NCBI GenBank assembly: GCA_046758505.1
Contig: JBHIAH010000001.1
Coordinates: 83,898 to 147,897, forward strand
Direction of reading: 5' to 3'
Length of the DNA: 64,000 nt
Source: Candidatus Methylomirabilales bacterium
GTDB lineage: Bacteria > Methylomirabilota > Methylomirabilia > Methylomirabilales > CSP1-5
Part shown: positions 8,963 to 61,287 of the stretch, piece by piece
Position numbering within the stretch: the stretch's first letter is position 1
Layout of the letters: the number at the start of each line of letters is the position of its first letter
Made by a program: the position numbers and the translations under genes
The notes under the pieces: generated by a model
Database searches by the model: none
The model's input: the letters and a program-made list of their open reading frames with translations, nothing else
Told to the model about the DNA's origin: nothing

Positions 8963-9766
8963 TCAACCGACGATGTCCTCCCCGCCATCGACACCAACCA
9001 CGTTGCCCGTCATCCATTGCGTCTCCGGTTGGCTCAGGACCACGATCCCGGCCGCCACATCGGCGGGGGTCGTCAGACGGTGAAACGGATTCCGCTCTCT
9101 GGCGACCTCGATCATCTTCTCGTGGCCGGGGATCTTGCGGAGGGCCGGGGTGTCGGTCACCCCGGCACGGACGGCATTGACAGCAATTCCCATCGGCGCC
9201 AGTTCCAGCGCCAGCTGTCGAACATGCGACTCCAAGGCGGCCTTGGCGGCGGAGACGGCACCATAGGTCGGCCAGACTCGCTGTCCGCCCGAGCTCGTCA
9301 TGGCAAAGACCCTCCCCCCCTCCTGCATCAGTCTTCGCCCAACCAGATCTTGGACCCAGTAGACGAGACTGTGCGCCATCACATCCACCGTCATATCCAT
9401 CTGGGGTTTCGTAATGGCTTCGGCGGGGTTCGCTGCGATGAAGGGCTTCAGGGTCCCAAAGGCCAGCGAGTGGAGGAGGACCTTGACCCCCCCCTCCTCA
9501 CCCCGTTCCTTCAGGACCTTTTCCATCCGATCCAACGCCTCCCGGCGCTTCTCCTCGTCGGCGGCGTTCATATTGAAGAAATGGGCCTCCCGCCCCATCC
9601 CCCGGATCTCCCCCACGATTCGCTCCACATTGGCCAGGGTGGCTTTTCGATCCATGTGCACTCCGAAGATATGCATTCCGGCTCGCGCCAGGGCCAGACC
9701 CGTAGCCTCTCCGAAGCCGCTCGACGCGCCCAGCACCACAGCCCAACCGCTCAACCGCTCGCTCAC
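8963..9766 (-). CDS. SDR-family oxidoreductase (enoyl-reductase-like)
   Basis: Gly-rich VLGASSGFG. RBS GGGAGGA lies 5 nt before GTG 9766. The ORF-track start at 9811 is also possible. Confidence 0.75.
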   Translation of the reverse strand: MSERLSGWAVVLGASSGFGEATGLALARAGMHIFGVHMDRKATLANVERIVGEIRGMGREAHFFNMNAADEEKRREALDRMEKVLKERGEEGGVKVLLHSLAFGTLKPFIAANPAEAITKPQMDMTVDVMAHSLVYWVQDLVGRRLMQEGGRVFAMTSSGGQRVWPTYGAVSAAKAALESHVRQLALELAPMGIAVNAVRAGVTDTPALRKIPGHEKMIEVARERNPFHRLTTPADVAAGIVVLSQPETQWMTGNVVGVDGGEDIVG

Positions 9767-9943
9767 TATTTCCTCCCTTCGCTGCGCTTCCACTCGATCT
9801 CCACACGGCAAATGGCGCAGGGATTCTACCCTAAGAGCGTTTGGGATTCAACGTTGAAACAGGCAACAACGTTCCCGTTTGACACCGAGGAAAAAGAACG
9901 GTAAAATTTTGCCCTCCACGCCACACCGTTCTGGAGGCGGTCC

Positions 9944-10663
9944 ATGCGTCGTGTTTTTCTGTTGGCCCTGATCCTTGCCTGCGCCGTCTTCCCCTGGAAG
10001 CGGGGCGACGCGACCGAGCGTCTCGGGGTCATTCCTGAATCTCTCCTCCGCGATTCTACCTCCCAGGAAATCCGAGAGGTTGTCGAGGGGGCGTCCTACG
10101 TCGGGGAGAAGAAGGGGGTGATCTTCAAGGGGCACCGGGCGGTCTACGAGTACCTCCTGAACCATCTCGACTTCGCCTCCCAGCTCGGCCGGGTCCTGGA
10201 TCTTTCCGATTACGCCGTCGAGCAGACGGGAGCCCGGGGCTACGAGGCCACCACCCCCCGGGGGGGATGGGCTCACCTCCAGGTGATCTATGCCGAGGGT
10301 GAGAAGCGGGTGGTCCTCGCCCGTGGGAGATACGGCCGGGCGGTGGTCGTGCTCGATTACACCTCCTTCAATCGCGAGGGGGAGAGTTACATCCTCAGTG
10401 ACCTGTACGGGTACGTCCGGGCGGATAACCCCATCCTCGATCTTCTCCTGGGCCTCTTCGGGGGGATCTTGAGTCATCGGGTCAACAAGATCTTCAGCAG
10501 TGTCGCCGAATTGAGCGAGCGCGCCTATACGGCCCCAGCCACCTTCTACGCGGAGCTCCTTCGTCACCCGGAGCTTCCCGCCCACCACCGCCTCGAGTTT
10601 GCAGAGATCCTGAATCGAGCCTCGCATGGCGAGGCTCGGGCGTTTTACGTTTCGCCCACCTGA
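9944..10663 (+). CDS. Secreted hypothetical protein
   Basis: GGAGG RBS and signal-peptide-like N-terminus MRRVFLLALILACAVF. No recognisable domain. Confidence 0.55.
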   Translation: MRRVFLLALILACAVFPWKRGDATERLGVIPESLLRDSTSQEIREVVEGASYVGEKKGVIFKGHRAVYEYLLNHLDFASQLGRVLDLSDYAVEQTGARGYEATTPRGGWAHLQVIYAEGEKRVVLARGRYGRAVVVLDYTSFNREGESYILSDLYGYVRADNPILDLLLGLFGGILSHRVNKIFSSVAELSERAYTAPATFYAELLRHPELPAHHRLEFAEILNRASHGEARAFYVSPT

Positions 10664-16795: not shown

Positions 16796-18841
16796 ATGCG
16801 TGTCAACATAAAGCGATTCAGCTTTACGGCAATCCTGCTCTCGGCATCGACGATCCATGTGGCCGGAGCGACGGTTACTCCAATGGCCGCGTCGGGCCCT
16901 TGCGCCAATTCCAACACCTTTCTGATCGGGAGCGGAATTTACGACATCACAGGACCCGCAGCCGAATTGGGCATGATGGGCTATGCCCGCCTGGGCCAGA
17001 AAACGGCCGGGATCCACACGCGTCTCTGGTCGCGGGCCTTCGTCATCGCGTCCCCCTGCAACAATAACCGTGTCGTCCTGGTCACTGCGGATCTGGGAAT
17101 ACTCAGCCAGGCAGTGGCGCAAGGGGTCGTCGAACAGCTGGAGCACACCTTTGGTGACCTGTATACCGATCAGAACGTGTTGCTGAGCGCTACCCATACG
17201 CACTCCGGACCGGGAGGCTATTCCCACTACGCGCTTTACAACCTGACCATCTTCGGTTTTGATCGGCAAAATTTTCGTACCGTCGTCGACGGGATCTATC
17301 AGTCCATCGTCCGCGCGCACGACAACCTCGCAGAAGGAACCATTACGATGGCCACCGGTGAGCTCCTCGACGCCAGTATCAATCGTTCCCCCGTGGCCTA
17401 TGCACAAAATCCCGCAGCCGAGCTGGCAGTGCACCCTTTCGATACCGACAAGGTGATGACCCTCTTGAAGCTGGAAAAGCTCCACGGCCGGGAGATCGGC
17501 AGCATCAACTGGTTTCCCGTCCACGCCACATCAATGGGGAACGACAATACGCTCATCAGCGGCGACAATAAGGGGTATGCCGCCTACCTATTCGAGAAAC
17601 GGAAGGCAACGGACTACACGGCAGGTGAAACCTTTGTGGCAGCCTTTGCGCAAAGTAACGAAGGAGACGTGTCTCCCAACATTTTTGGAGGGACCGATGG
17701 CGGGGGTGCCACTGACTTCGAAAGCACCCAGATTTCAGGTCAACAGCAGTTCGCCAAAGCACTAGAGCTTTATAACGGTGCGACGGAGTTGCTTACCGGA
17801 GGGGTGGATTCCCGCCATACTTACCTCACAATGGATGAGGTGTCTGTGGCGCCAGCGTTCACCGGCGGTGTTGATCGCCGCACGTGTCCCGCCGCGATCG
17901 GCATTTCGATGCTGGCAGGTGCCGAGGAGGGCCCCGGCTTTGGTGAGGAAGGGTGGACCTGCCAAGAGATAGAGGATTTCTTTGGTGCATTCACGTGCGC
18001 AGGGCTGACCACCGCCTGCCAAGGTGAAAAGCCGATTGCGCTGGAAACGGGTACGCAGGAGCCCTTTCCATGGACGCCGGAGGTGCTGCCGTTTCACATC
18101 ATCACGATCGGCAAGCTGGCTCTGGTCGGTGTTCCCTTCGAGATGACCACGATGGCCGGACGACGCCTGCGCAGGACGGTGGAAGCTCAATTAGCGCCGG
18201 CGGGCATCGATACCGTGGTTATCGCCGGATTGGCCAACGCATATGCAGGCTACGTGGCGACGCGAGAAGGGTACAGCGTCCAGCACTACGAAGGGGCATC
18301 GACACATTTCGGCCCCTGGACGCTGGCAGCGCTGCAGCAAGAGTTCGACCGCCTCGCCTCAGCCCTCAGGGAAGGTTTCGACGTGGATCCCGGCCCCACG
18401 CCGAGAGACTTACGTTGTTGTCAGCACACCGTGCTCACCGGTGTGGTCTTTGACGACAAGCCGTTGTTCAAGCGCTTCGGAAGTGTTCACAAACACGCAA
18501 AACGATCGTACACTCGCGGGGAGACCGTCACGGTCATCTTCTGGGGCGGACACCCCAGGAACAACTTGAAAATTCAGGACACGTATCTCGAGGTGCAGCG
18601 CAGGATGAAGAGATCCTGGGTAACTGTCGCCACTGACCTGGATTGGGAGACTAAGTACCGGTGGCAGCGGGTTCCCTGCCCCCCCACGTTTGCCTGCTCA
18701 TATGTCACGGTCGAGTGGGAAATTCCCGAGGGTGCAGCGGGGGGATCGTACCGCATTCGGCACTACGGCCACTGGAAATCCGGCTGGAACGCAAGCATCC
18801 ATCCATACACGGGAACCTCACGCATCTTCACAGTCCAGTAA
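16796..18841 (+). CDS. Neutral/alkaline ceramidase
   Basis: Signal peptide, then DITGPAAELGMMGYARLGQKTAGIHTRLWSRAF, which matches the neutral-ceramidase N-terminal signature. About 680 aa. Confidence 0.8.
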   Translation: MRVNIKRFSFTAILLSASTIHVAGATVTPMAASGPCANSNTFLIGSGIYDITGPAAELGMMGYARLGQKTAGIHTRLWSRAFVIASPCNNNRVVLVTADLGILSQAVAQGVVEQLEHTFGDLYTDQNVLLSATHTHSGPGGYSHYALYNLTIFGFDRQNFRTVVDGIYQSIVRAHDNLAEGTITMATGELLDASINRSPVAYAQNPAAELAVHPFDTDKVMTLLKLEKLHGREIGSINWFPVHATSMGNDNTLISGDNKGYAAYLFEKRKATDYTAGETFVAAFAQSNEGDVSPNIFGGTDGGGATDFESTQISGQQQFAKALELYNGATELLTGGVDSRHTYLTMDEVSVAPAFTGGVDRRTCPAAIGISMLAGAEEGPGFGEEGWTCQEIEDFFGAFTCAGLTTACQGEKPIALETGTQEPFPWTPEVLPFHIITIGKLALVGVPFEMTTMAGRRLRRTVEAQLAPAGIDTVVIAGLANAYAGYVATREGYSVQHYEGASTHFGPWTLAALQQEFDRLASALREGFDVDPGPTPRDLRCCQHTVLTGVVFDDKPLFKRFGSVHKHAKRSYTRGETVTVIFWGGHPRNNLKIQDTYLEVQRRMKRSWVTVATDLDWETKYRWQRVPCPPTFACSYVTVEWEIPEGAAGGSYRIRHYGHWKSGWNASIHPYTGTSRIFTVQ

Positions 18842-41451: not shown

Positions 41452-42747
41452 GTGATCCCCACCGCCATTCCCAAAGGGGTACGCGTTCTCTCCCCGGCCG
41501 AGGCAGCCCGCCTCAGATGGGTCGAGAAGACGCTTCTCTCCGTCTTTCAGCGCTGGGGTTTTCGGGAAGTCCTGACCCCCACCTTCGAATATCTCGACGT
41601 CTTCGCCCACGGGGCGGGGGATGTGGTTGAAGGAAAGGCCTTCAAGTTCGTGGACCGACAGACCGGGCTTCTCCTGGCGCTGCGGCCTGATCTGACCCCC
41701 CAGGTGGCGCGGATGGTCGCTGCCACCATGCGGCATCATCCCCTCCCGCTCCGGCTCGCGTACTCCACCTCGGTCTTCCGCCACGAGGAGCCCCAGGCAG
41801 GACGGCAGCGGGAGTTCTTTCAGGCCGGCGTTGAGCTGATCGGCTCGGACCGGCCCGAGGCAGATGCCGAGATGATCGCCATGGCGGTCGAGGGATGCCA
41901 GGAGGCCGGGCTCCAACGTTTCCAGATCGACGTCGGCCAGGTAGAGTACCTCCGGGGGATGCTCAACGCGCTCAACCCGTCGCCCGAACTCCGCCGAAAG
42001 ATCGTTTCCGCCCTCCGACGCAAGGACGCGTTGGAGCTCGAACTCACCCTGAAGCCGCTCCAGGCCGAGGCGAGATTGAAAGAGGGGATCCTGAATCTGA
42101 CCACCCTGTACGGGGACGAAGCGGTCCTGGAACAGGCGAAGGCGTGGGCCGTCACCGAGCAGTCCCGGGTGGCTCTCGAGAACCTGATCGACGTCTACGC
42201 AGTCCTCAAGACCTATGGTCTGGCCGAGCACATCATCATCGATTTGGGCGAGACGTATGCCTTCGACTACCACACCGGGGTCGTCTTTCAGGTCTTCACC
42301 GAGTCGCTCGGCTACCCCATCGGTGGAGGCGGGCGCTACGATAACCTGATCGGCCGGTTCGGCTACCCCTGTCCCGCCACCGGGTTCGCCTTCGAGCTGG
42401 AGAAGGTTCTCGGCGCCCTGGAGGCAGAGGGAATCCTGCCGGCGGATCAAGGGCCGGACTTCCTCATCATCGATTTCAATCCGGACAAGCGCCAGGCCCT
42501 TCACATCGCCCGGGCCCTGCGGGGCAAGGGCTACGCTGTAGCCAGGGACATCATCCGGCGCGACCTCGAGGGGTCGCTCGACTATGCCCGAGTGAGCGCG
42601 ATCCCCCGCGCTCTCATCCTAGGCCTCGATGGAATGCCCGGGGATACCATGTCCCTGCGAGATCTTACGAGAGGGACTGAGACAACCTTCTCTATTCCGG
42701 AGTTTATCCAGCGCGTCAGGGATGGGACACTCCAATGGCCAACGTGA
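41452..42747 (+). CDS. hisZ: ATP phosphoribosyltransferase regulatory subunit
   Basis: HisRS-like core without an anticodon domain: FQRWGFREVLTPTFEYLDVF, FQAGVELIG, GGGRYDNL. hisZ-purA adjacency. Confidence 0.85.
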   Translation: MIPTAIPKGVRVLSPAEAARLRWVEKTLLSVFQRWGFREVLTPTFEYLDVFAHGAGDVVEGKAFKFVDRQTGLLLALRPDLTPQVARMVAATMRHHPLPLRLAYSTSVFRHEEPQAGRQREFFQAGVELIGSDRPEADAEMIAMAVEGCQEAGLQRFQIDVGQVEYLRGMLNALNPSPELRRKIVSALRRKDALELELTLKPLQAEARLKEGILNLTTLYGDEAVLEQAKAWAVTEQSRVALENLIDVYAVLKTYGLAEHIIIDLGETYAFDYHTGVVFQVFTESLGYPIGGGGRYDNLIGRFGYPCPATGFAFELEKVLGALEAEGILPADQGPDFLIIDFNPDKRQALHIARALRGKGYAVARDIIRRDLEGSLDYARVSAIPRALILGLDGMPGDTMSLRDLTRGTETTFSIPEFIQRVRDGTLQWPT

Positions 42748-44039
42748 TCGTGGTCGGCACGCAGTGGGGGGACGAGGGCAAGGGAAAGGTCGTTGACACC
42801 ATCAGCGAATCCTTCGACGCCGTGGCCCGGTATCAGGGGGGGAACAACGCGGGACACACCGTGGTGGTGGGCAACGAAAAGGTGATCCTCCACCTCGTTC
42901 CCTCGGGCATCCTTCGGAAAGGGAAGACCTGCATCCTCGGAAACGGCGTGGTGGTCGATCTCCCGGGCCTCACCCATGAACTCAACCAGCTCCGCCGCCT
43001 GGCTGTGAACGCCGAGGGACATCTGTTCATCGGGAAAAACGCCCACCTGGTCCTCCCCTACCACAAGATCCTGGACCACGAGCGGGAGAGGGACGCCGCC
43101 CGACCCATCGGGACCACCGGACGCGGGATCGGTCCCGCGTACGCCGATAAGGTCGCCAGAGTGGGGATCCGCATCGGCGATCTCTTCGACCCGGCCCTGT
43201 TCCGCGAGCGACTGCGCGCCAATCTGGCCGAGAAGCAGGCCCGCGCCACGAAAGAGAGTGCGCTGCACACCCTCGATCCCGAGGCCGTCTTTGACGAGCA
43301 GATGGCCCACTTCCGCGAAGTCGAGGCCTTTCTGGTCGACGCCTCGGCGGTCCTGAACCGGATGATCGACGAGGGAAAGAAGATCCTGTTTGAGGGGGCG
43401 CAGGGCACCCTCTTGGATGTGGACCTGGGGACGTACCCGTATGTGACCTCGAGCAGCGCCACAGCCGGAGGGGCCTGCATCGGCACCGGGGTCGGCCCGA
43501 CCCGGGTTGACGGGGTCCTGGGCGTCATCAAGGCCTACACAACGCGGGTGGGGGAAGGGCCGTTCCCCACCGAGCTCAGAGATAACATCGCCGAGGAACT
43601 CCGCAAGCGCGGAGGAGAGTACGGGGCCACCACAGGCAGACCCAGGCGATGCGGGTGGCTCGACGCGATTGCCCTTCGCTATGCCATCCAGGTGAACGGC
43701 CTCAGTACGTTGGCGCTGACAAAGCTGGACGTCTTGGATCCGTTCCCGGTACTCCGGATCTGCCGCGCCTATCGCTACCGGGGTCACACCCTGGAGGATT
43801 TCCCCAACGAGACTGATATCCTGACGGAATGCCAGCCGGTCTACGAGGAGATCGAGGGGTGGCAGGAAAGCACGGTCGGGCGCACCTCGATCGCGGAACT
43901 GACCCAGGAGTGCCGCGCCTTTCTAGACCGGCTCGAGGCCATCCTCGGTATCAACATCTCCATCATCTCCACGGGCCCCGAGCGGGACCAGACCATCCTC
44001 CTCCCCACCCCCACCTTGAAGCAGTGGGGCCTGGTGTAG
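42735..44039 (+). CDS. purA: Adenylosuccinate synthetase
   Basis: MANVIVVGTQWGDEGKGK, GGNNAGHT, TTGRGIGPAY. Confidence 0.95.
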   Translation: MANVIVVGTQWGDEGKGKVVDTISESFDAVARYQGGNNAGHTVVVGNEKVILHLVPSGILRKGKTCILGNGVVVDLPGLTHELNQLRRLAVNAEGHLFIGKNAHLVLPYHKILDHERERDAARPIGTTGRGIGPAYADKVARVGIRIGDLFDPALFRERLRANLAEKQARATKESALHTLDPEAVFDEQMAHFREVEAFLVDASAVLNRMIDEGKKILFEGAQGTLLDVDLGTYPYVTSSSATAGGACIGTGVGPTRVDGVLGVIKAYTTRVGEGPFPTELRDNIAEELRKRGGEYGATTGRPRRCGWLDAIALRYAIQVNGLSTLALTKLDVLDPFPVLRICRAYRYRGHTLEDFPNETDILTECQPVYEEIEGWQESTVGRTSIAELTQECRAFLDRLEAILGINISIISTGPERDQTILLPTPTLKQWGLV

Positions 44040-44201
44040 TTCACGGTTCACAGCCAATAACCAGCAGTCAGCAGCCAGCTGTCAGCCGTCGGCAACCAAT
44101 TCAAAGCCCGCTATCTCCTGATAACTGATTGCTGACCGCTGATGGCTGATCGGTAGTTGCTGAACGCTGAGTGCTGGCTGCTGCCTGCTGATAGCTCATA
44201 A
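44039..44201. repeat. Longest locus: 8 units (GTTCACG...GTCAGCA-type) plus 12 units (CTGAnnG-type), purA / beta-propeller spacer
   Basis: 44039-44097 is eight units in perfect register. 44118-44201 is twelve units (CTGATAA CTGATTG CTGACCG CTGATGG CTGATCG GTAGTTG CTGAACG CTGAGTG CTGGCTG CTGCCTG CTGATAG CTCATAA). The arms are partly complementary. Confidence 0.9.
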
Positions 44202-44204
44202 CGG

Positions 44205-45176
44205 GTGGACGACATGTGGCTGCTTCGTTGGTCAGGGAGAATCCTTGCGACCTTCCTGTGTGTTCTGGCCTCCGGGGCCACTCTCTGGGCTGATGTTGTC
44301 GTGGTCGCAAACGAACACGCCGGCACCCTGTCGATATTGAATCCCAAGGTGCGGGAAGCCATCGGAATACTCGAGGTCGGGGGGGATCCCCACAATCTGG
44401 GCGTGACCAGGGATGGGCGACGGGTCGTGGTAACGCAACCATCCGCCGGGATGGTGACGGTTGTTGATGCCCGCCTCCCAAGAATATTGAAGCATCTGAA
44501 GGTCCCCGGATGGCCCCACGGCGTCGCGGTGAGTCCAGATGACCGCTGGGCCTTTGTGGGTGCGGAAAGGCACCGGAAAGTATATGTGGTGGATCTCCAG
44601 CGCCTGGGCCTCGACCGGGCATTCGCCGTGGAGCCTGCGGTCCACAACCTGGTCATCACCAAGACTGGCCAGGCGTGGATGACGGCCCTGGGGGAACGTT
44701 TTCTTTGGCTTGTGGATCTCCAAGCCGGGATGTTGATATCCCGCCTCGAGACGACAGCTAGGCCCCACGACCTCGCCCTCACACGCGGCGGAGATATCCT
44801 CTGGGTCGCAAACTGGGGGAGCAGGGATGTGTTCCTCGTTCATGGGCAGCCACGCCAGGTCGAGACGATACCGATCTCGGGTCGCCAGCCCCACCATGTC
44901 GCAATCACGCCCGATGAGCGCGAGATCTGGATCACGAATCACGGGTCGCAGGACATCAGTGTCATCGATGCCTTGGCCCAACGCGAAATAGCTAGAATCG
45001 CAGTCGGCAAAGCCCCGCATCACGTGGCCTTTTCAGCCGACGGGCGCAGGGCGTACGTTGCCAACAGCGGATCGGATACTGTGTCAGTCGTGGACGTCGC
45101 GGCTAGACGCGAGGTGAGCCGGCTACCAGCCGGCGCGCACCCCCACGGAATCGTCGTCATCCCCGACACCCCCTGA
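44205..45176 (+). CDS. Secreted YVTN-type beta-propeller repeat protein
   Basis: Repeated about-40-aa units (G.PHGVAVSPDGR.AYVAN...VSVVD). Signal-like N-terminus. ATG 44214 is an alternative start. Confidence 0.7.
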   Translation: MDDMWLLRWSGRILATFLCVLASGATLWADVVVVANEHAGTLSILNPKVREAIGILEVGGDPHNLGVTRDGRRVVVTQPSAGMVTVVDARLPRILKHLKVPGWPHGVAVSPDDRWAFVGAERHRKVYVVDLQRLGLDRAFAVEPAVHNLVITKTGQAWMTALGERFLWLVDLQAGMLISRLETTARPHDLALTRGGDILWVANWGSRDVFLVHGQPRQVETIPISGRQPHHVAITPDEREIWITNHGSQDISVIDALAQREIARIAVGKAPHHVAFSADGRRAYVANSGSDTVSVVDVAARREVSRLPAGAHPHGIVVIPDTP

Positions 45177-45468
45177 AGGTTTCCAAATGGCGGACACCCG
45201 CTCATCCGTTTTCCTGCGTGATGACTCACCCTCCCCTGCTATAACGAGCCTGAAGACCTGGTAGCTGAGCGAGCAGCGCACACACCTTTTCAGCGATAAG
45301 GCGGTCCAGAGCCCCTCTGTAAGTTGCGGGGCTCATCGAGCAGTGATTATTTGGCACCACTAGCATCATGGAAATGGGGCGGCGAATGCGGGGTTTTCGA
45401 TTCCCTGTGCGACCCGAAATCCCAATCCTCCAAGCGGGAAGGGACGGCGTGACCGAAGCATCTGGCGC

Positions 45469-45497
45469 TTGACACACCCTCCCGAGTGGTGGATACT
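45469..45497 (+). promoter_or_regulatory. Candidate promoter upstream of the IPCT/DIPPS-like gene
   Basis: TTGACA, 17-nt spacer, GATACT. It would give a roughly 350-nt leader. Confidence 0.3.
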
Positions 45498-45773
45498 CAA
45501 TCTCCCCCCTCTGCCCCCCAGCCAACACTGGGGTCACAGGGTCCCGGCGGGAAAGGCACCTCGATGAAAAGGGACGACACTTCTGTACCACCTAAGGCAG
45601 GAATACCCCATGTCAGCCGAATGGACCCCTCCCGGATGCGAAGCAGCCCAGACCGGCACAAGGAATACGGCCACCGTGACGGTGATCACATCACAAGTGG
45701 TAAGGCCCCCCTGGCATAACCCCAATAGTAGCCGCACTTAACATCAAGAGCCGTAAAGTCGGACATAAACCAC

Positions 45774-45802
45774 GGTTCACAGCAGTGTCCCGACGATGAA
45801 CC
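45774..45802. repeat. Mini heptamer element GGTTCAC AGCAGTG TCCCGAC GATGAAC C
   Basis: Inverted termini GGTTCA...TGAACC, 50 nt upstream of the low-GC IPCT/DIPPS-like gene. Confidence 0.5.
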
Positions 45803-45850
45803 ATACTAGTTAAGCAAAGACCTCACCAAAGGATTAAGGCTCGACTGACC

Positions 45851-47176
45851 ATGAACTGCCTCATCATTGCTGCAGGACGGGGAAGAAGATTCCTTTCCCA
45901 AGGGGACTCAAAGCCGCTCATTCGACTCTTGGGATTGTCCCTGATCGAACGGGTCATATTGACCGCAAACAGCGTGGGTCTGAACGACTACTATGTAGTC
46001 AGCGGCTACAATGGTGAGAAGCTCCGCCAAGCATTGGACAGACTCAGTCGGTCCCGAAATCTACGAATAACCCACCTCATCAACGAAGAGTGGGAGAAGG
46101 AAAACGGATTATCTGTTCTGAAGGCGAAGACGGTCCTCAATCAGAATTTTATCCTCTTAATGGCAGACCATATCTTGGATGAATCAATACTGCTCAAACT
46201 CAAGAATCAACCCATTGCCGAAGCTGAAACGATCCTGGCTGTAGATTACAACATCGACACGAACAAGCTTGTTGATGCTGATGATGTTACGAAAGTTCTT
46301 GTCGCCGGCGATCGGATCGTAGACATAGGAAAGAACATCAAGAAATACAACGCTTACGACACAGGGGTTTTCCTTCTTTGTTCACCCGACATATTCAGCG
46401 CCATCGAAGAGAGTGTCCAGAGAGGCGACAGTTCACTTTCAGGAGCAATCAGGATAGCGGCCGAAGATAACAAAGCCAAAGCGATGGGCATTAAGGATGC
46501 TTTCTGGATTGACGTCGATGATGACCTATCCCTGAAAAAGGCCGAAGGCCAGCTCTTATCCACGGTGAAAAAGTCATCGGATGGCTTTATTTCGAGATAC
46601 ATCAATAGACCACTCTCGATCAGGGCCACAAAACATCTTTTAAAAACCGAGATTACTCCAAACTCTGTTTCCTTCTTTTCGTTTGTTCTTTCAATGGTGG
46701 GGGCGGTTTTTTTCTTTTCAGGGGGATATATTCCTTTGGTTATTGGGTCAATCCTGGCACAAATATCATCCATCATTGACGGATGTGATGGTGAGATAGC
46801 AAGATTAAGATTCCAGGTCACGGAATTCGGAGGATGGTTTGATGCTGTCCTCGATCGATACGCTGATGGCTTTCTGCTTTTGGGTTTGACGTTTCAAGTG
46901 TATTCTACAAATGTCCACTTTCTAATCGTGTTAATTGGGTTTCTAGCAATACTAGGCACTTTCATGAATAGTTACACAGCGGAGAAATTCGACCGTTTCA
47001 TGCAGAGAAGACTTCCCCATGGGAAGTACTATTTTAGAATGGGTCGGGATTTGAGGATGTTTATCATATTTCTTGGGGGCCTCGCCAATCAGCCTCTTTT
47101 AGTGCTCGTTGTCATTGCTTTGATAATGAATGCAGAGAATGTCAGACGAATGATCCTTGTAGTGGAGAATGAGTAG
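45851..47176 (+). CDS. Bifunctional nucleotidyltransferase / CDP-alcohol phosphotransferase (IPCT/DIPPS-type architecture)
   Basis: N-terminal sugar/alcohol-phosphate nucleotidyltransferase motif IIAAGRGRRF. C-terminal membrane domain carries the CDP-alcohol motif DGCDGEIARLRFQVTEFGGWFDAVLDRYAD. Clearly more AT-rich than its surroundings. Confidence 0.8.
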   Translation: MNCLIIAAGRGRRFLSQGDSKPLIRLLGLSLIERVILTANSVGLNDYYVVSGYNGEKLRQALDRLSRSRNLRITHLINEEWEKENGLSVLKAKTVLNQNFILLMADHILDESILLKLKNQPIAEAETILAVDYNIDTNKLVDADDVTKVLVAGDRIVDIGKNIKKYNAYDTGVFLLCSPDIFSAIEESVQRGDSSLSGAIRIAAEDNKAKAMGIKDAFWIDVDDDLSLKKAEGQLLSTVKKSSDGFISRYINRPLSIRATKHLLKTEITPNSVSFFSFVLSMVGAVFFFSGGYIPLVIGSILAQISSIIDGCDGEIARLRFQVTEFGGWFDAVLDRYADGFLLLGLTFQVYSTNVHFLIVLIGFLAILGTFMNSYTAEKFDRFMQRRLPHGKYYFRMGRDLRMFIIFLGGLANQPLLVLVVIALIMNAENVRRMILVVENE

Positions 47177-47624
47177 TGCGCCGTCGATCACATGCTGTCC
47201 CGGCCCCTGTAGCGACGCGGGGATCAAGAAGAGGGGCGAAACGAGGGGTCGTGTTTCGTGTCCGAGCGAACTCTTTCGGCCATCCTGGGGTCTTCCGGGG
47301 AGGAAGCTGTCAACTTGAGATCCAGGACAGCGGCAATCCATTTGTCGTTCCGGCGTGGCAGACGACCAAATCGCTCGACGACGGCTGTCGTGGCTCTGGG
47401 ATCCAAGCTCACTATCTCCCCGCTCCCAAGCGCCGTCTCGCGCTGGACTTCCCCTGCCGGCTCTCGCTCGCTGCTGTCGCCCCTCACGGACGTTCATGGC
47501 GTGCTCTGCCGCCGGCCTGGCGTGGGACCCAGGAGCTCCCCTTCGTCGTGCACAAGGCCCTGCGGACCACACTTTTAGGCACCGCCTGCGTCAACCAATT
47601 ATTCCCTTTCACAGAAGCAGGATC

Positions 47625-48515
47625 ATGTTTGACGTCTGCGTCATCGGCCACGTGACGAGGGACATCATACGCATGACCCGTGCGGGCACAGAACTCCCGG
47701 GCGGCGTCGCCTATTACTTTTCCATGGCATGCAAAAGCCTCGGATCGAGAGTGACCGTGGTGACAAAGTGCAGAGAGGACGACCGGCTTCTCTTGAGCGA
47801 TCTGGTGACTCAGCATATTCCGATTTGTTTTCAGCGGAGTGAGCAGACAACGACGTGTGAGCATACGTACCTGAAGGATCCCAATGTGAGAAGAGAGAAG
47901 ATCACAGGCGTCGCCGCCCCATTCACGACCGAGGATATCCCACATGTCTCCGCCAGCGTTTTTCACGTCGGACCGCTCACCAAGTCGGATATTTCGGTGG
48001 ATGTCCTCACGCTCCTTTCACAAAAATCACGGGTATCCTTGGATATCCAAGGATTCCTCCGACACATCGAGAACGGAAAAATCAGATACACGGATTGGGA
48101 ACAGAAGGAGGAGGGATTACGATACGTCAATATTTTAAAGGCCGACGAAACCGAGGCAAAAATCCTCTCGGGACAGATGGATCTCGACCGAGCGGCCCTG
48201 CGGCTCTCGGCATATGGGATCAATGAAATCATCATTACCCGGGGGAATAACGGATCTGTGATTTATGCCGGAGGAAAGGCGTATCCCATCCCCGCTTTCA
48301 TTCCCACGAGAATCGTTGATCCGACGGGATGCGGGGATACCTATATGGCTGGATATATTTTCAAGCGGCTTCAGTCGTGCCCAATCGACGACGCGGGGAA
48401 CTTCGCGGCCGCAGCCGCGTCGTTAAAGCTCGAGCGATCCGGACCCTTCCGAGGAACCGAACAGGACGTCCAAGACTTTTTGGACCACCAGCGAACGAGA
48501 GCTGGAAAGGGATGA
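47625..48515 (+). CDS. PfkB-family carbohydrate/polyol kinase
   Basis: MFDVCVIGHVTRDII and C-terminal signature DPTGCGDTYMAGY. Lower GC. The ORF-track start at 47355 is a GC-rich non-coding-looking extension. Confidence 0.8.
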   Translation: MFDVCVIGHVTRDIIRMTRAGTELPGGVAYYFSMACKSLGSRVTVVTKCREDDRLLLSDLVTQHIPICFQRSEQTTTCEHTYLKDPNVRREKITGVAAPFTTEDIPHVSASVFHVGPLTKSDISVDVLTLLSQKSRVSLDIQGFLRHIENGKIRYTDWEQKEEGLRYVNILKADETEAKILSGQMDLDRAALRLSAYGINEIIITRGNNGSVIYAGGKAYPIPAFIPTRIVDPTGCGDTYMAGYIFKRLQSCPIDDAGNFAAAAASLKLERSGPFRGTEQDVQDFLDHQRTRAGKG

Positions 48516-48801
48516 CCGATTCCTGATCGTGGACTGGCAGGGCGTCCGAGATCGAGCATTCCCACGACTTGTGAGCCACGAGGTGTGCCAGCCCTACTCA
48601 CGGCCGCATGAAGGGGGGACGATATTTCCTGTCGACGCCAAGATTGAACCCGACGCAGTTAAACAGATTAGGCAAGCCTGCCACCCCACGTTCACAAATT
48701 AGGCGAGGCTGACATTTCACACCTCACGTCGCTACCCCGGTTCCATCCCCACATCTCTTAAGGAGGCATGGCCAGGAGCCGCCGCAGCGGACCCGCTACC
48801 G

Positions 48802-49494
48802 TTAGTCGGAGGACGCCACCTGGTTCGGCCGGAGCAGGTGGTCCTCCACCCCCCTGACGCCGGGAACGTCTTCGACGAGGACCCGCAGGGCCCGGCGGAC
48901 CTCAGCGTAGGCGACGAAGCCCACGAGGCGCACGATCCCGTCGGCCACCATGACCTGCACGGAAGGCCACTCCAGCCACTCGATAATCTTGAGCTCCTCG
49001 GAGACCCGTCGTTGGATCTCCGCGTCGTCAGGCGGCATTCCAGCCGGGTCGGCGGGTACTGGCCGCAGGGCGAGGGCCCGGACCAGGTCTCGGCGGCTCA
49101 CGATCCCGACGAGGTGCTCGTCGCGGACGACCGGGACTCGCTTGATTCGGTGCTCCTCGAGGATCCGGGCAATCTCCTCGACTGGAGTCTCTTCCGTGAC
49201 GGTTACCGGCGGCTGGTTCATCACGTCCTCGACCTGCTTTCCGTGGATCCGAATAAACTCGCGCGCCTGCCCCTCCCGGTCCGCCAGGAAGGCCAGCCAC
49301 CATTTCTTGCGGCGGGGACTTCGAAGCCGATGAACCAGGTCGGCTTCGCTCACCACCCCCAGGACCTCGCCGCCGGCCCCGACCACCGGGACAGCGCCCA
49401 CCCCCGTGTCGAGGAGGAGCCACGCGAGGGTCTCGACCAACATCTCCGGCGTCGCCGTGACCACCTCGTGCGTCATCACGTCCCGTGCCAGCAT
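48802..49494 (-). CDS. CBS-pair plus BON domain protein
   Basis: Two CBS halves (ARDVMTHEVVT...AVPVV and VEDVMNQPPVTV...RVPVV) and a C-terminal BON-like VQVMVADGIVRLVGFV...VPGVRGVEDHL. Confidence 0.8.
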   Translation of the reverse strand: MLARDVMTHEVVTATPEMLVETLAWLLLDTGVGAVPVVGAGGEVLGVVSEADLVHRLRSPRRKKWWLAFLADREGQAREFIRIHGKQVEDVMNQPPVTVTEETPVEEIARILEEHRIKRVPVVRDEHLVGIVSRRDLVRALALRPVPADPAGMPPDDAEIQRRVSEELKIIEWLEWPSVQVMVADGIVRLVGFVAYAEVRRALRVLVEDVPGVRGVEDHLLRPNQVASSD

Positions 49495-49549
49495 GGCACT
49501 CCTCGTCTCGCCTGCATCTCCAATAAGGGTTGGAGGGGCATATATGAGC

Positions 49550-49596
49550 GAGAAATGAAAACGCCCTCCCGGGCCGTGCTCCGCCCGGGAGGGCGT
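49550..49596 (-). terminator. Strong intrinsic terminator on the minus strand, 55 nt upstream of the CBS-BON start codon
   Basis: Perfect 13-bp stem ACGCCCTCCCGGG / CCCGGGAGGGCGT with a 10-nt loop. On the minus strand it is followed by UUUCAUUUCU. Confidence 0.7.
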
Positions 49597-49925
49597 CTAA
49601 GTGCCTGGTGCGCCATCGATTGTGCCTGAGGTGGGCCCGGGGCTATGGTCACCCCGGTTTCATACCTCCACCACTTGCGGGGAGCTTCCCCCTCCCCTCA
49701 TCCCCTGGTCACCCAAGCGACCACGGGAAGGGCCGCCAACAATATAACCTCCTTGCAACAAGACAAATGAGATGTCAATGACGCTGGTCGACCATTAATA
49801 TGATTGAGATTAGATTCACGGGGGGGGCGGGCCGGATGTAGCAGGCTCGGATTTGCCAGTTCCCTCTGTAGGAGAACTGTAGGGCAAATGTCTATTCCGC
49901 GGCCATTTCCACCCGGGGAACCCCC

Positions 49926-49955
49926 TTGACATCCGAGGTGCTATTATGATATATT
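49926..49955 (+). promoter_or_regulatory. Candidate promoter of the PilZ gene, in an AT-rich divergent region
   Basis: TTGACA, 18-nt spacer, TATATT. Confidence 0.4.
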
Positions 49956-50061
49956 TTATTGTATAAATTAAAGAGTTGTCGCACTTTCCTCGATTTGGTC
50001 TGAATGTTGCATTGTATCTGCCTGTATACGCAGCGTCTCTACGAAAGGGGGGAAGCCATCG

Positions 50062-50424
50062 ATGCTTCGCGACGTGGATGGAGGCAAACGGCGGCATCGC
50101 CGGTGGGCAGCAGGAGGCCGGCTCGTGGGACGGATTGACGCCACCCAGAGGGTGTCTTTCGTCGATATCAGCCTGGGCGGGGCCCTGATCGAACATTCGA
50201 CAATGGTCCAGCCTGGAATGATCTCATTCCTGACCCTCTCGCTCTCCGGGGAGGAGGAAGCCCTGAAGTGCCGTGTGGTGCGATCGGCGGTCCATCGCTA
50301 TGAGATCGAGCCCACCGGGGAGCGGGGCCTGGTCTATCGCTCGGGGGTGGAATTTCTGGACACCTCGGAGGTATCCCTGCGCCTGATCGACAAATCCATC
50401 GAGTCCCTGAAGGCCGTCGCCTAA
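50062..50424 (+). CDS. PilZ-domain protein
   Basis: RRHRR (RxxxR) followed by DISLGGA (D/NxSxxG). Confidence 0.7.
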   Translation: MLRDVDGGKRRHRRWAAGGRLVGRIDATQRVSFVDISLGGALIEHSTMVQPGMISFLTLSLSGEEEALKCRVVRSAVHRYEIEPTGERGLVYRSGVEFLDTSEVSLRLIDKSIESLKAVA

Positions 50425-50548
50425 CCTGTTGACCGCAGAATCTCCGCGCTCTCAACCTCATACCTCCTCGGTCCTTTCCCTGTAACACAGAGAGTCCAGG
50501 TCACGTTTCCCTTGACGGTGCTGGGACACGTGTGGGACCAGGTTTGAG

Positions 50549-50577
50549 TTGACTCCCGCCAGATAACGGTGCAAAAT
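50549..50577 (+). promoter_or_regulatory. Candidate promoter of tRNA-Lys
   Basis: TTGACT, 17-nt spacer, CAAAAT. The tRNA 5' end lies 9 nt downstream. Confidence 0.4.
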
Positions 50578-50586
50578 CACTCGCGG

Positions 50587-50662
50587 GACCCGTTAGCTCA
50601 GCTGGCAGAGCACCTGCCTTTTAAGCAGGGGGCCGCAGGTTCGAATCCTGCACGGGTCACCA
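50587..50662 (+). tRNA. tRNA-Lys (anticodon UUU)
   Basis: Hand-folded cloverleaf: acceptor GACCCGT/ACGGGTC, D arm GCTC-AGCTGGCA-GAGC, anticodon loop CTTTTAA, T arm GCAGG-TTCGAAT-CCTGC, encoded CCA. Confidence 0.9.
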
Positions 50663-59125: not shown

Positions 59126-60097
59126 GTGAAGGCCTTGGTCACGGGCGCGACCGGGTTCATCGGCAGCCACCTCGTGGAGTACCTGTTGCAGCGGGGAGAC
59201 GATGTCACCTGTCTCGCCCGGAGCCGAAGCCGCCTCCGGTGGCTGAAAGGTTTACAGGTCAGGGTCGTCGAGGGAGACTGCACGGATCCTGCCCTGGGGG
59301 GGCGCCTTGTTGAGGACTTTGACTGGGTCTTTCATCTGGCTGGGCTCACCAAGACCCTGGAGCGCAACGAGTATTACCGGGTTAACGGGAAGGGGACGGC
59401 CAACCTGGGCACGATCCTGGCCCAGAAGAGACGACCACCCCGGCTGGTGTACCTGAGCAGTCTGGCAGCGGCCGGGCCCAGCACGGACGGACATCCGTTG
59501 CGGGAATCTGACCCCCCCCAGCCGGTAAGTCATTACGGCCGGAGCAAGCTGGAGGGGGAGAACGGGCTGACACGACTCGGGGCCGGGATTCCCTGGACCA
59601 TTGTCCGGGCACCGGTGATTTATGGTCCCCGGGACCGCGACCTCTTGGTCTTCTTTCAGCTGGCCAAACGGCGGGTGGCGTTTCGCCTGGGGAGGAGACA
59701 GGCCTTCAGCCTCTGTTATGTGGAGGACTTGGTACGCGGCCTGCATTTGGCAGCCGAGCGGGGAGGGACCGGAGAGATATACTACCTCGCAGAGGCCTCT
59801 CCCCGGTCCTGGGACGAGATATCGGAGGCCATTGGGGCGGCCGTGGGGGTCCGGCCAATGACGGTTCCCCTCCCTCGTCCCCTCCTGGCCGGCGCCGCGT
59901 GGGTTTCGGAGGGGATGGCGCGCCTCACGGGAATTCGACCGCTCCTCAACCGAGACAAGGCCCGGGAAATGCAGCAGCAATACTGGATATGCAATCCGGG
60001 CAAGGCCGCACGGGATTTAGGCTTCGCCACCTCCATCCCCCTACGCACGGGAACGGCACGGGTGGCGAAGTGGTATGAGCGTCACGGCTGGCTCTAA
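59126..60097 (+). CDS. NAD-dependent epimerase/dehydratase-family reductase (CerR-like by context)
   Basis: MKALVTGATGFIGSHL Rossmann motif and YGRSK catalytic motif. Lies immediately upstream of the alpha-oxoamine synthase. Confidence 0.8.
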   Translation: MKALVTGATGFIGSHLVEYLLQRGDDVTCLARSRSRLRWLKGLQVRVVEGDCTDPALGGRLVEDFDWVFHLAGLTKTLERNEYYRVNGKGTANLGTILAQKRRPPRLVYLSSLAAAGPSTDGHPLRESDPPQPVSHYGRSKLEGENGLTRLGAGIPWTIVRAPVIYGPRDRDLLVFFQLAKRRVAFRLGRRQAFSLCYVEDLVRGLHLAAERGGTGEIYYLAEASPRSWDEISEAIGAAVGVRPMTVPLPRPLLAGAAWVSEGMARLTGIRPLLNRDKAREMQQQYWICNPGKAARDLGFATSIPLRTGTARVAKWYERHGWL

Positions 60098-60108
60098 AGG
60101 AGGAGGGC

Positions 60109-61287
<1,179 letters not shown>

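Follow-up and report, generated by a model that had tools for sequence, protein, structure and literature searches.

The locus described here is an islet of lower GC content at positions 45720-48515 of a 64,000-nucleotide stretch of DNA (the window) from contig JBHIAH010000001.1 of an NC10 bacterium of the order Methylomirabilales. Its two genes encode a fused membrane enzyme of the type that joins a cytidylyltransferase for inositol-1-phosphate to a synthase of di-myo-inositol-phosphate phosphate (IPCT/DIPPS), which is associated with the synthesis of di-myo-inositol phosphate (DIP) by way of its phosphorylated form (DIPP), and a kinase of the PfkB family. They are preceded by what is left of a gene for myo-inositol-phosphate synthase (MIPS). 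Positions are those of the window, and the loci with which it was compared are referred to by L numbers. The features of the islet are as follows.

45724-45763, forward strand: possible second fragment of a MIPS gene (weak), corresponding to about nucleotides 150-189 and amino acids 51-65 of MIPS
45765-45848, forward strand: pseudogenised 3' end of a MIPS gene (tblastn, blastn, DNA alignment)
45851-47176, forward strand: IPCT/DIPPS-type bifunctional enzyme, 441 amino acids (profile, fold, motif and selection evidence)
47625-48515, forward strand: PfkB/ribokinase-family kinase, 296 amino acids (PF00294, E = 2.5e-28)

A reading of the islet made from its sequence only had described the 441-amino-acid protein as a fusion of a nucleotidyltransferase with a CDP-alcohol phosphotransferase, and this is borne out by matches to PF12804/PF00483 at residues 3-172 and to PF01066 at residues 269-370. 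The protein consists of a cytidylyltransferase (IPCT) domain at residues 1 to ~240 followed, from ~244 to 441, by a juxtamembrane helix and a CDP-alcohol phosphotransferase domain of the DIPPS type with six transmembrane helices. The catalytic motif D-G-x2-A-R...G-x3-D-x3-D, which had been reported as complete, is indeed intact (DGCDGEIARL...GGWFDAVLDRYAD). This eight-residue motif and a downstream RxxR motif are invariant in all 119 IPCT/DIPPS homologues, and the GxGxR loop of the N-terminal domain is present as AAGRGRR. The NCBIfam model for IPCT/DIPPS (NF041135) matches over its whole length, with residues 1-438 aligned to positions 1-417 of the 419 in the model (279.5 bits, E = 4.9e-83). 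No other model comes near this score, the pgsA model TIGR00560 for instance reaching a mere 17.7 bits. A phmmer search of solved structures showed that the IPCT/DIPPS of Archaeoglobus fulgidus (PDB accession no. 4MND) covers residues 1-413 and that the N-terminal domain is related to the stand-alone IPCT structures 2XME (E = 4.6e-15) and 4JD0 (E = 3.1e-12). With an AlphaFold model of the protein (pLDDT 77, helices at 270-439), the best Foldseek hit was again 4MND (E = 7.6e-24, TM-score 0.74/0.80), with AF2299 second, followed by 4JD0 and 2XME (TMt 0.82-0.84). The end-to-end profile match and the top fold match uphold the IPCT/DIPPS architecture originally suggested, and the C-terminal domain sorts with DIPPS and AF2299 rather than with the phosphatidylglycerophosphate and phosphatidylserine synthases PgsA and PssA.

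Alignment with AF2299 (to within five residues or fewer of the end), hydropathy and the AlphaFold model all give six transmembrane helices with the C-terminus at the sixth. Neither the RxxR motif (R399-D-L-R402) nor a terminal RR varies among the 119 homologues, and AF0263 and AF2299 have both. In phosphatidylinositol-phosphate synthases, whose acceptor is inositol phosphate, an RxxR motif holds one of two arginines proposed as ligands of the acceptor's phosphate (PMC4634129). By analogy, the RxxR arginines of the fusion protein may be linked to recognition of an inositol-phosphate acceptor, the correspondence being one of motif and not of direct alignment. The protein deviates at nine of 179 near-invariant columns of the family (90th percentile of the family, eight), and all nine changes are conservative. 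The ratio of nonsynonymous to synonymous substitution rates (dN/dS) of its gene is 0.10 against L008 and 0.10-0.13 across L008, L075 and L004; for comparison with the L008 value, the flanking purA and HisRS-family genes give 0.09-0.11. The IPCT/DIPPS gene is undamaged, and purifying selection acts on it.

By homology, the protein is identified as an IPCT/DIPPS, and the formation of CDP-inositol and of DIPP is predicted for it. It resembles AF0263 (4MND) and the NF041135 proteins in being a two-domain fusion that is collinear from end to end, in the catalytic motif, in the six transmembrane helices and in the fold, and its own relatives share the linkage to MIPS genes. It differs from AF0263 in sequence (identity of ~28% in the N-terminal and ~38% in the C-terminal domain) and from the enzymes of (hyper)thermophiles in that its local partner is a kinase, its MIPS gene is a stub, its host is an NC10 bacterium and its relatives come from cold seeps and sediments. 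AF2299 (PDB accession nos. 4O6M, 4O6N and 4Q7C) offers the closest solved membrane domain, likewise with six helices and soluble substrates, whereas its N-terminal cytosolic domain has no sequence alignment to the IPCT domain of the window protein.

The second gene, correctly noted before as that of a PfkB-family kinase (PF00294), begins at ATG 47625 according to gene callers and the lengths of family members; the long open reading frame 47355-48515 is over-extended. Its best phmmer matches among solved structures are the two characterised myo-inositol kinases, TM0415 (E = 2.8e-39, ~33% identity) and MI3K_TK (E = 5.9e-15). Entries for these two proteins occupy ranks 1-8 in a Foldseek search with the AlphaFold model (pLDDT 94.8; TM-score up to 0.91), ribokinases follow from rank 9 on, and phmmer gives the same order. 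The catalytic GXGD motif is present as G235-C-G-D238 and the Mg-binding motif of the NXXE type as D174..E177; in the family, Gly and Asp of the former and Glu of the latter are invariant. Of the inositol-contacting residues of TM0415, D11, Q141 and R145 are kept as D13, Q142 and R146, whereas N78 is His in the window kinase.

The genomic linkage of this kinase family with IPCT/DIPPS supports inositol as the acceptor. IPCT/DIPPS adjoins the kinase in eight of 31 metagenomic kinase loci and also in L030, making at least nine loci besides the window, in the orders IPCT/DIPPS-kinase, kinase-IPCT/DIPPS, kinase-IPCT/DIPPS-MIPS and MIPS-kinase-IPCT/DIPPS. The genes are separated by 1-8 nucleotides or overlap in L094, L097, L098, L100 and L101. 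L075 has the gene order of the window (73% and 65% identity), and L030, from a member of the Cyclobacteriaceae, has kinase-MIPS-IPCT/DIPPS followed by a gene for a DUF4202 protein. Three Bacteroidota loci show the order IPCT/DIPPS-DUF4202-PfkB with no MIPS gene directly upstream, and their distant PfkB proteins share the pocket signature. The neighbours of kinase homologues located away from IPCT/DIPPS are heterogeneous. A gene for a sodium:solute symporter lies just 5' of a kinase homologue (54% identity) in L093 (2580-3542) and L095 (1341-2303), and the two could form a pair for inositol uptake and phosphorylation. Homology and this synteny together make the window protein a probable myo-inositol kinase, and gene order in the relatives suggests that the kinase usually supplements MIPS there and does not replace it.

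TM0415, the pyrophosphate-dependent myo-inositol 1-kinase of Thermotoga maritima (PDB accession no. 5YSP; PMC5931981), is the nearest characterised relative (TM-score 0.85-0.91); D11, Q141, R145, K171, F221, T204 and K265 are all conserved in the window kinase. The two differ at pocket residues 76, 78 and 89, and the TM0415 gene lies in an inositol catabolic operon, not in a DIP cassette. MI3K_TK (TK2285; PDB accession nos. 3W4S and 4XF7), an ATP-dependent PfkB inositol 3-kinase from the DIP-producing Thermococcus kodakarensis, is the second-best structural match (TM-score 0.78-0.85) and, like the window kinase, has a small residue in GXGD. Its sequence is far less close than that of TM0415, and its pocket is hydrophobic (L77, L87, V112), in contrast to F/N/Q in the kinase family and C/H/E in the window protein. 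Its gene is presumably near the DIP genes of that archaeon without forming one operon with them. The MIPS product and 1D-myo-inositol 3-phosphate (1D-Ins(3)P) are the same compound. For MI3K_TK, Ins(3)P is given as the product in PMC5931981.

Nagata et al. (PMC5931981) described TM0415 as phosphorylating myo-inositol with pyrophosphate (PPi) and identified five residues of donor selectivity together with an RXGRGD motif. At these five positions the window kinase has K for K171, F for F221, P for R229, C for R232 and L for M266. Position 232 is Cys in all 119 kinase homologues, and position 229 commonly holds P, A, V, T or S, none of these common residues being Arg. In members that depend on ATP, the second position of GXGD is taken by a small residue, Cys being an ATP-type state (PMC5931981). 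PPi-dependence was considered, as TM0415 is the best match, and was rejected as the leading idea, both arginines of the motif being absent (PTGCGD in place of RXGRGD). ATP is predicted as the phosphate donor, with reservations, since the kinase still has two or three of those 'PPi' residues that are bulky or basic.

The acceptor pocket of the family is almost invariant (D11, F76, N78, Q89, L116, Q141 and R145 in TM0415 numbering). Compared with 119 homologues, the window kinase deviates at three of the 52 columns that are at least 95% conserved, namely F76C, N78H and Q89E (C78, H80 and E91 in its own numbering, hence F78C, N80H and Q91E); the Asn at position 78 is found in 118 of the 119. All three lie among the 13 residues within 4.5 Å of inositol in TM0415, for which the chance probability, calculated post hoc, is ~0.013. 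Positions 78 and 89 are those that differ between PDB entries 5YSP and 7E4L, the latter being entitled 'Conversion of pyrophosphate-dependent myo-inositol-1 kinase into myo-inositol-3 kinase by N78L/S89L mutation'. A homologue from Acanthamoeba (No. 7) has C76 and Q89, and its product is not Ins(1)P (PMC5931981). Judged from these residues, the window kinase may have another regiospecificity or another acceptor than its relatives, in a direction that sequence alone does not predict.

No intact MIPS gene was found in the 64-kb window by tblastn with two MIPS proteins. The 70-85 nucleotides before the ATG of the IPCT/DIPPS gene are, from their alignment, the degraded 3' end of such a gene. Using the MIPS of L004 in tblastn, positions 45765-45845 correspond to amino acids 341-367, the last 27 residues of the protein, at 44% identity. 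The stub contains an in-frame TAG at 45807-45809 and closes with a TGA at 45846-45848, 2 nucleotides 5' of the IPCT/DIPPS start codon; when it is aligned to the 3' ends of the MIPS genes of L004, L014, L016 and L075, this stop codon is in register. In blastn against 34 MIPS genes the stub shows 71-74% identity over 53-56 nucleotides, and its best score is 33.7 bits as against a maximum of 31.0 among 200 shuffles. Homologous stubs are present in L008 (E = 6.5e-4) and L109 (E = 4.6e-13), and both start at about nucleotide 990 of MIPS. The earlier description of a kinase standing in place of an inositol-phosphate synthase thus stands as far as an intact gene within 64 kb is concerned, but a MIPS stub lies inside the islet itself and elsewhere the kinase usually accompanies MIPS.

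The short match immediately upstream (45724-45763) is 81% identical to the L004 MIPS gene over 32 nucleotides (E = 0.006), and a profile hidden Markov model (HMM) aligns its translation IVAALNIKSRKVGHK with MIPS positions 51-65 at a score near 0. No fragment of this type was seen in L008 or L109, and it may be a chance event. Considered as a possible proof of an internal deletion in MIPS, it counts as weak evidence since the two related loci lack it.

The islet had also been described as AT-richer than its surroundings, with parts at close to 40% GC against 60-65% around it, and measurement agrees. The 500-bp windows 46001-46500 and 46501-47000 have GC contents of 0.468 (z = -5.1) and 0.422 (z = -6.6), against a background of 0.624 +/- 0.031 with a minimum of 0.544 (122 windows of 500 bp). 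Third codon positions deviate as well: with a host reference GC3 of 0.776 +/- 0.055 from 35 open reading frames, the IPCT/DIPPS gene (GC 0.451) has a GC3 of 0.511 (z = -4.8) and the kinase gene (GC 0.540) one of 0.633 (z = -2.6). A composition like that of the host, which would have spoken against a foreign islet, was therefore not found. In each of the 19 loci checked, the GC content of the IPCT/DIPPS gene is below that of the flanking DNA, and transposases adjoin the cassettes of L005 and L030. Homologues with 65-79% identity are scattered over Methylomirabilales, ANME-1/Methanophagales, Methanosarcinales, WOR-3, Actinomycetota, Desulfobacteraceae, Thermoplasmatota, Zixibacteria, Bacteroidota and others. 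Strongly deviant composition, scattered homologues, low GC relative to flanks and neighbouring transposases speak for a horizontal acquisition of the cassette. Its distribution agrees with the view in the literature of an extensive exchange of DIP genes between bacteria and archaea.

Gene context was surveyed in 39 species-level loci with a full-length IPCT/DIPPS gene, the denominators being loci with enough flanking sequence. MIPS is directly upstream of IPCT/DIPPS in 18 of 35 loci and DUF4202 directly downstream in 27 of 37, where the stop codon is usually overlapped; in several loci of the ANME-1 type MIPS is upstream with two genes, for a family 4 glycosyltransferase (GT4) and a GH130 protein, between it and IPCT/DIPPS. 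The standard cassette, as the comparison has it, is MIPS-IPCT/DIPPS-DUF4202, of which the window has a MIPS stub, the IPCT/DIPPS gene and no DUF4202. The DUF4202 protein (PF13875; for example L006:6819-7385, and also in L009, L014, L016 and L030) has a weak match to HD phosphohydrolases and is a good candidate for the DIPP phosphatase of the pathway; no mention of DUF4202 turned up in the literature searched.

Two variants of the cassette were observed. The order MIPS-GT4-GH130-IPCT/DIPPS-DUF4202, with GH130 being the mannoside-phosphorylase family, occurs in L006, L007, L011, L013, L017, L018 and L020 (ANME-1/Methanosarcinales), and a GT4-GH130 pair of like kind lies 3' of IPCT/DIPPS in L040, L042 and L045; the presence of this pair suggests a glycosylated, possibly mannosylated, derivative of DIP. 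In L064-L074 (Sphingomonadales/Alphaproteobacteria), MIPS stands beside a stand-alone IPCT-like N-domain protein (33-39% identity), and several of these loci also have a separate CDP-alcohol phosphotransferase next to MIPS. This split arrangement, found in sphingolipid producers, may serve inositol-lipid synthesis.

The islet is set between purA and a tRNA-Lys gene, and the features that frame it or separate its genes are the following.

42735-44039, forward strand: purA (adenylosuccinate synthetase), left core-genome landmark (PF00709, E = 2e-174)
44205-45176, forward strand: YncE-like beta-propeller gene (PF21783; GC 0.62, host-like)
47177-47624, no strand assigned: spacer of 448 bp, apparently non-coding (63% GC; GC1/2/3 = 0.66/0.61/0.62)
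50587-50662, forward strand: tRNA-Lys(UUU), right landmark (ARAGORN, Rfam; 100% identical to L008 11495-11570)

Two related Methylomirabilales genomes are L008 (Ca. Methylomirabilis MAG-BB-18) and L109, whose IPCT/DIPPS proteins are 75% and 79% identical to that of the window. In both, the cassette follows purA directly, and in the window it follows shortly after. The YncE-like gene and the next 588 bp (45177-45764) between purA and the cassette belong to the window lineage only and are absent from L008 and L109. The tRNA-Lys gene of L008 lies ~170 nucleotides after IPCT/DIPPS; the L109 contig stops 91 nucleotides past IPCT/DIPPS, so that its visible part ends there. A rough neighbour-joining tree places the window, L008, L109 (P0002) and L075 in one clade, to which L004 is sister. 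The MIPS gene of L004 is intact; in L075 the 3' end of MIPS is intact and the kinase is present. As the stub and the position behind purA are common to the window, L008 and L109, the cassette would have entered the purA-tRNA-Lys interval before these lineages split, with MIPS truncated early. The simplest history is an ancestral order MIPS-IPCT/DIPPS-kinase from which MIPS was lost later.

The purA-tRNA-Lys interval is a variable hotspot (44040-45764 and 47177-50586 in the window, 9731-11494 in L008). To the right of IPCT/DIPPS, the window has in addition to L008 the spacer, the kinase, a CBS-CBS-BON gene (48802-49494, reverse strand) and ~1 kb more. The search for att-like duplications of tRNA-Lys and for direct or inverted repeats flanking the islet gave short chance matches only, and no integrase was found at the hotspot. 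The 448-bp spacer corresponds to just ~109 nucleotides in L075, the closest relative, and shows no similarity to the other loci compared. HMMs built from 28 and 32 sequences detected neither DUF4202 nor additional MIPS remnants in the spacer and its flanks, and there was no Rfam match even at E <= 1 and no sign of a structured RNA (fold z-score +2.1). A public gene call, a 159-amino-acid Arg-rich open reading frame at 47176-47655, has no coding signature and no homologues among the loci and families compared, and is probably spurious. In L004, a relative from the Methylomirabilales, IPCT/DIPPS is followed by a gene (9612-10436) for a xylose-isomerase-like TIM-barrel protein (PF01261), a family that includes the inosose dehydratase/isomerase proteins IolE and IolI.

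With moderate confidence, the locus is best explained as a partly decayed, horizontally acquired DIP cassette in which the kinase provides a salvage entry where the MIPS gene of the locus has been lost. As homology and synteny suggest, the kinase would phosphorylate free myo-inositol from uptake or recycling, with ATP as the probable donor. From homology and from the MIPS linkage of its relatives, the N-terminal domain of the fusion protein would then use CTP to convert the inositol phosphate into CDP-inositol, and its membrane domain would transfer phospho-inositol from the latter onto a second inositol-1-phosphate to give DIPP. Some phosphatase would have to free DIP from DIPP, a speculative step as the usual DUF4202 partner is absent here. 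The scheme of kinase, CDP-alcohol and acceptor put forward in the sequence-only reading gains comparative support in this form, and its polyol can now be specified as very probably myo-inositol. Directly observed are the anatomy of the locus, its composition, the pseudogene, the synteny, the selection and the patterns of residues. The NC10 host, recognised from the NCBI record of the exact protein in a Candidatus Methylomirabilales MAG, is a methanotroph that we take to be mesophilic, or at least not thermophilic; three runs of one SRR series contain identical contigs.

Several observations weigh against this explanation. The fusion protein misses the equivalog cut-off of NF041135 (580 bits, against the 279.5 scored); as the model was built for Thermococcales only, the shortfall shows divergence and is no sign of a different function. 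Taken alone, the membrane domain scores higher against AF2299 (155 bits over 193 residues) than against the proven DIPPS of AF0263 (79 bits), and AF2299, which was crystallised with CDP-glycerol, has an unsettled physiological reaction. L008 and L109 have an intact, constrained IPCT/DIPPS gene with the MIPS stub, in L008 without an adjoining kinase, which suggests another source of inositol phosphate; genomes of the L008/L109 type probably have one. Such a source could be encoded elsewhere in the window's own population or a sister population, where it could be the missing synthase: stand-alone MIPS genes 88% identical to that of L004 were found in L106-L108 (SRR29324584, SRR29324611 and SRR29324609), with a GC of 0.58 in a background of 0.61-0.64 and no IPCT/DIPPS after them. 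Of the three runs with this NC10-like MIPS, which belong to the same SRR series, only one also holds the contig of the window (L003), the link to one genome being unproven.

The remaining points of this kind concern the kinase. Its family retains K171 and F221 of the five PPi residues, with Leu at M266, which makes the donor less certain, and the three pocket substitutions mean that substrate or product may differ from those of the relatives. 1D-Ins(1)P is reportedly the wrong enantiomer for IPCT, a statement that goes back to Rodrigues in 2007. It is the product of TM0415, whose Km for inositol is 12 mM; the authors who described this enzyme doubt that inositol is its true substrate (PMC5931981).

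A further-reaching form of the salvage explanation is that the kinase-fed route has replaced de novo synthesis of inositol phosphate at the DIP locus and that the pocket has been retuned at just those residues that determine the hydroxyl to be phosphorylated, so that DIP or a stereo- or regio-variant of it would be made purely from scavenged inositol. This we regard as rather unlikely. If true, it would amount to a MIPS-independent pathway for a compatible solute in a methanotroph and to a natural switch of regiospecificity in inositol kinases.

Somewhat less likely again is that the kinase no longer makes the standard substrate of IPCT and has been retuned to another regio-isomer or to another cyclitol or polyol, leading to a non-canonical CDP-alcohol and phosphodiester, or that it has become uncoupled from IPCT/DIPPS. 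In its favour, the only three deviations from conserved columns all line the inositol pocket, two of them fall on the conversion sites of 7E4L and the Cys at 76 is as in homologue No. 7; moreover, the kinase sequence is identical in three independent assemblies. However, the changes from N to H and from Q to E are polar-conservative, D13, Q142, R146 and all catalytic motifs are kept, and three deviations lie within the range of the family (median 1, maximum 4-5). The kinase gene has a dN/dS of 0.135, and its IPCT/DIPPS partner shows conservative changes only.

The sequence-only reading had left open whether the product is a compatible solute or a polar head group of lipids; the solute is favoured, and the head group has become improbable. 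In the latter case the fused enzyme would move phospho-inositol from CDP-inositol to diacylglycerol or ceramide in a Kennedy-type reaction feeding sphingolipid metabolism. The window does encode a neutral/alkaline ceramidase (16796-18841, E = 1e-172), a serine-palmitoyltransferase-type aminotransferase (class I/II) preceded by an NAD-dependent reductase/epimerase (59126-61287) and an Aas-like fusion of AMP-binding, ACP and acyltransferase domains (acyl-ACP synthetase/acyltransferase, 174-2663), and these genes hint at sphingolipid metabolism in an NC10 bacterium. They are core genes, however, and the sphingolipid-type ones lie outside the foreign islet at distances of 12-30 kb. In loci of sphingomonads, MIPS is found together with a split IPCT-like protein and with a CDP-alcohol transferase that is separate, and a CDP-inositol path to inositol lipids has been proposed, without proof, for clusters of the Bacteroides vulgatus type (PMC9246714). 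The latter resemble the window in their proposed CDP-inositol intermediate and in combining MIPS, an NTP-transferase and a CDP-alcohol phosphatidyltransferase, but they consist of separate proteins of unproven function and include a HAD hydrolase, whereas the window protein is fused and DIPPS-like and has no extra helices. Clarke et al. (PMC4634129) associated the six-helix form with soluble acceptors, lipid-acceptor enzymes typically having three to four more helices at the C-terminus, and the window protein ends at its sixth. AfDIPPS and AF2299 'do not process lipids' (PMC4634129), and both in sequence and in fold the protein comes closest to the enzymes with soluble substrates. Proteins 65-70% identical to it occur alike in archaea, with their ether lipids, and in bacteria, with ester lipids, which fits poorly with a lipid acceptor, and the RxxR arginines linked to an inositol-phosphate acceptor are invariant.

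Least probable of all is that the locus is a decaying relic with its remaining genes unused and heading for loss: the MIPS stub with its internal stop, the missing DUF4202, the long non-coding spacer between the genes where L075 has ~109 nucleotides and the high count of invariant-position deviations in IPCT/DIPPS would fit, but both open reading frames are full length with all motifs, those deviations are conservative, and pure decay is contradicted by the intact motifs together with a dN/dS of 0.10 for IPCT/DIPPS across the stub-sharing lineages and of 0.135 for the kinase.

DIP has been regarded as a sign of life at temperatures above about 55 °C. In a paper of 2021, deep-sediment Thaumarchaeota were called the first non-thermophiles with DIP genes (PMC8397731). 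The window and ~70 related loci point to a very mobile MIPS-IPCT/DIPPS-DUF4202 cassette of seeps, sediments and the subsurface with a range well beyond thermophiles, carried by NC10 bacteria, ANME-1, sulfate reducers, WOR-3, Actinomycetota, Bacteroidota and others. New points are the MIPS stub, a kinase family linked to IPCT/DIPPS and the altered pocket, which together suggest a salvage-fed version of the known DIP pathway. The attached kinase family has donor-site residues between those of the ATP- and PPi-dependent classes and an inositol pocket that is nearly invariant, except in the gene of the window. The physiological role of the product could be that of an osmolyte, a thermoprotectant or something else. 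If the salvage explanation is true, DIP synthesis would have more entry points than before, the window kinase would offer a natural test of the N78/S89 rule of regiospecificity, and DUF4202 would be pointed to as the missing DIPP phosphatase.

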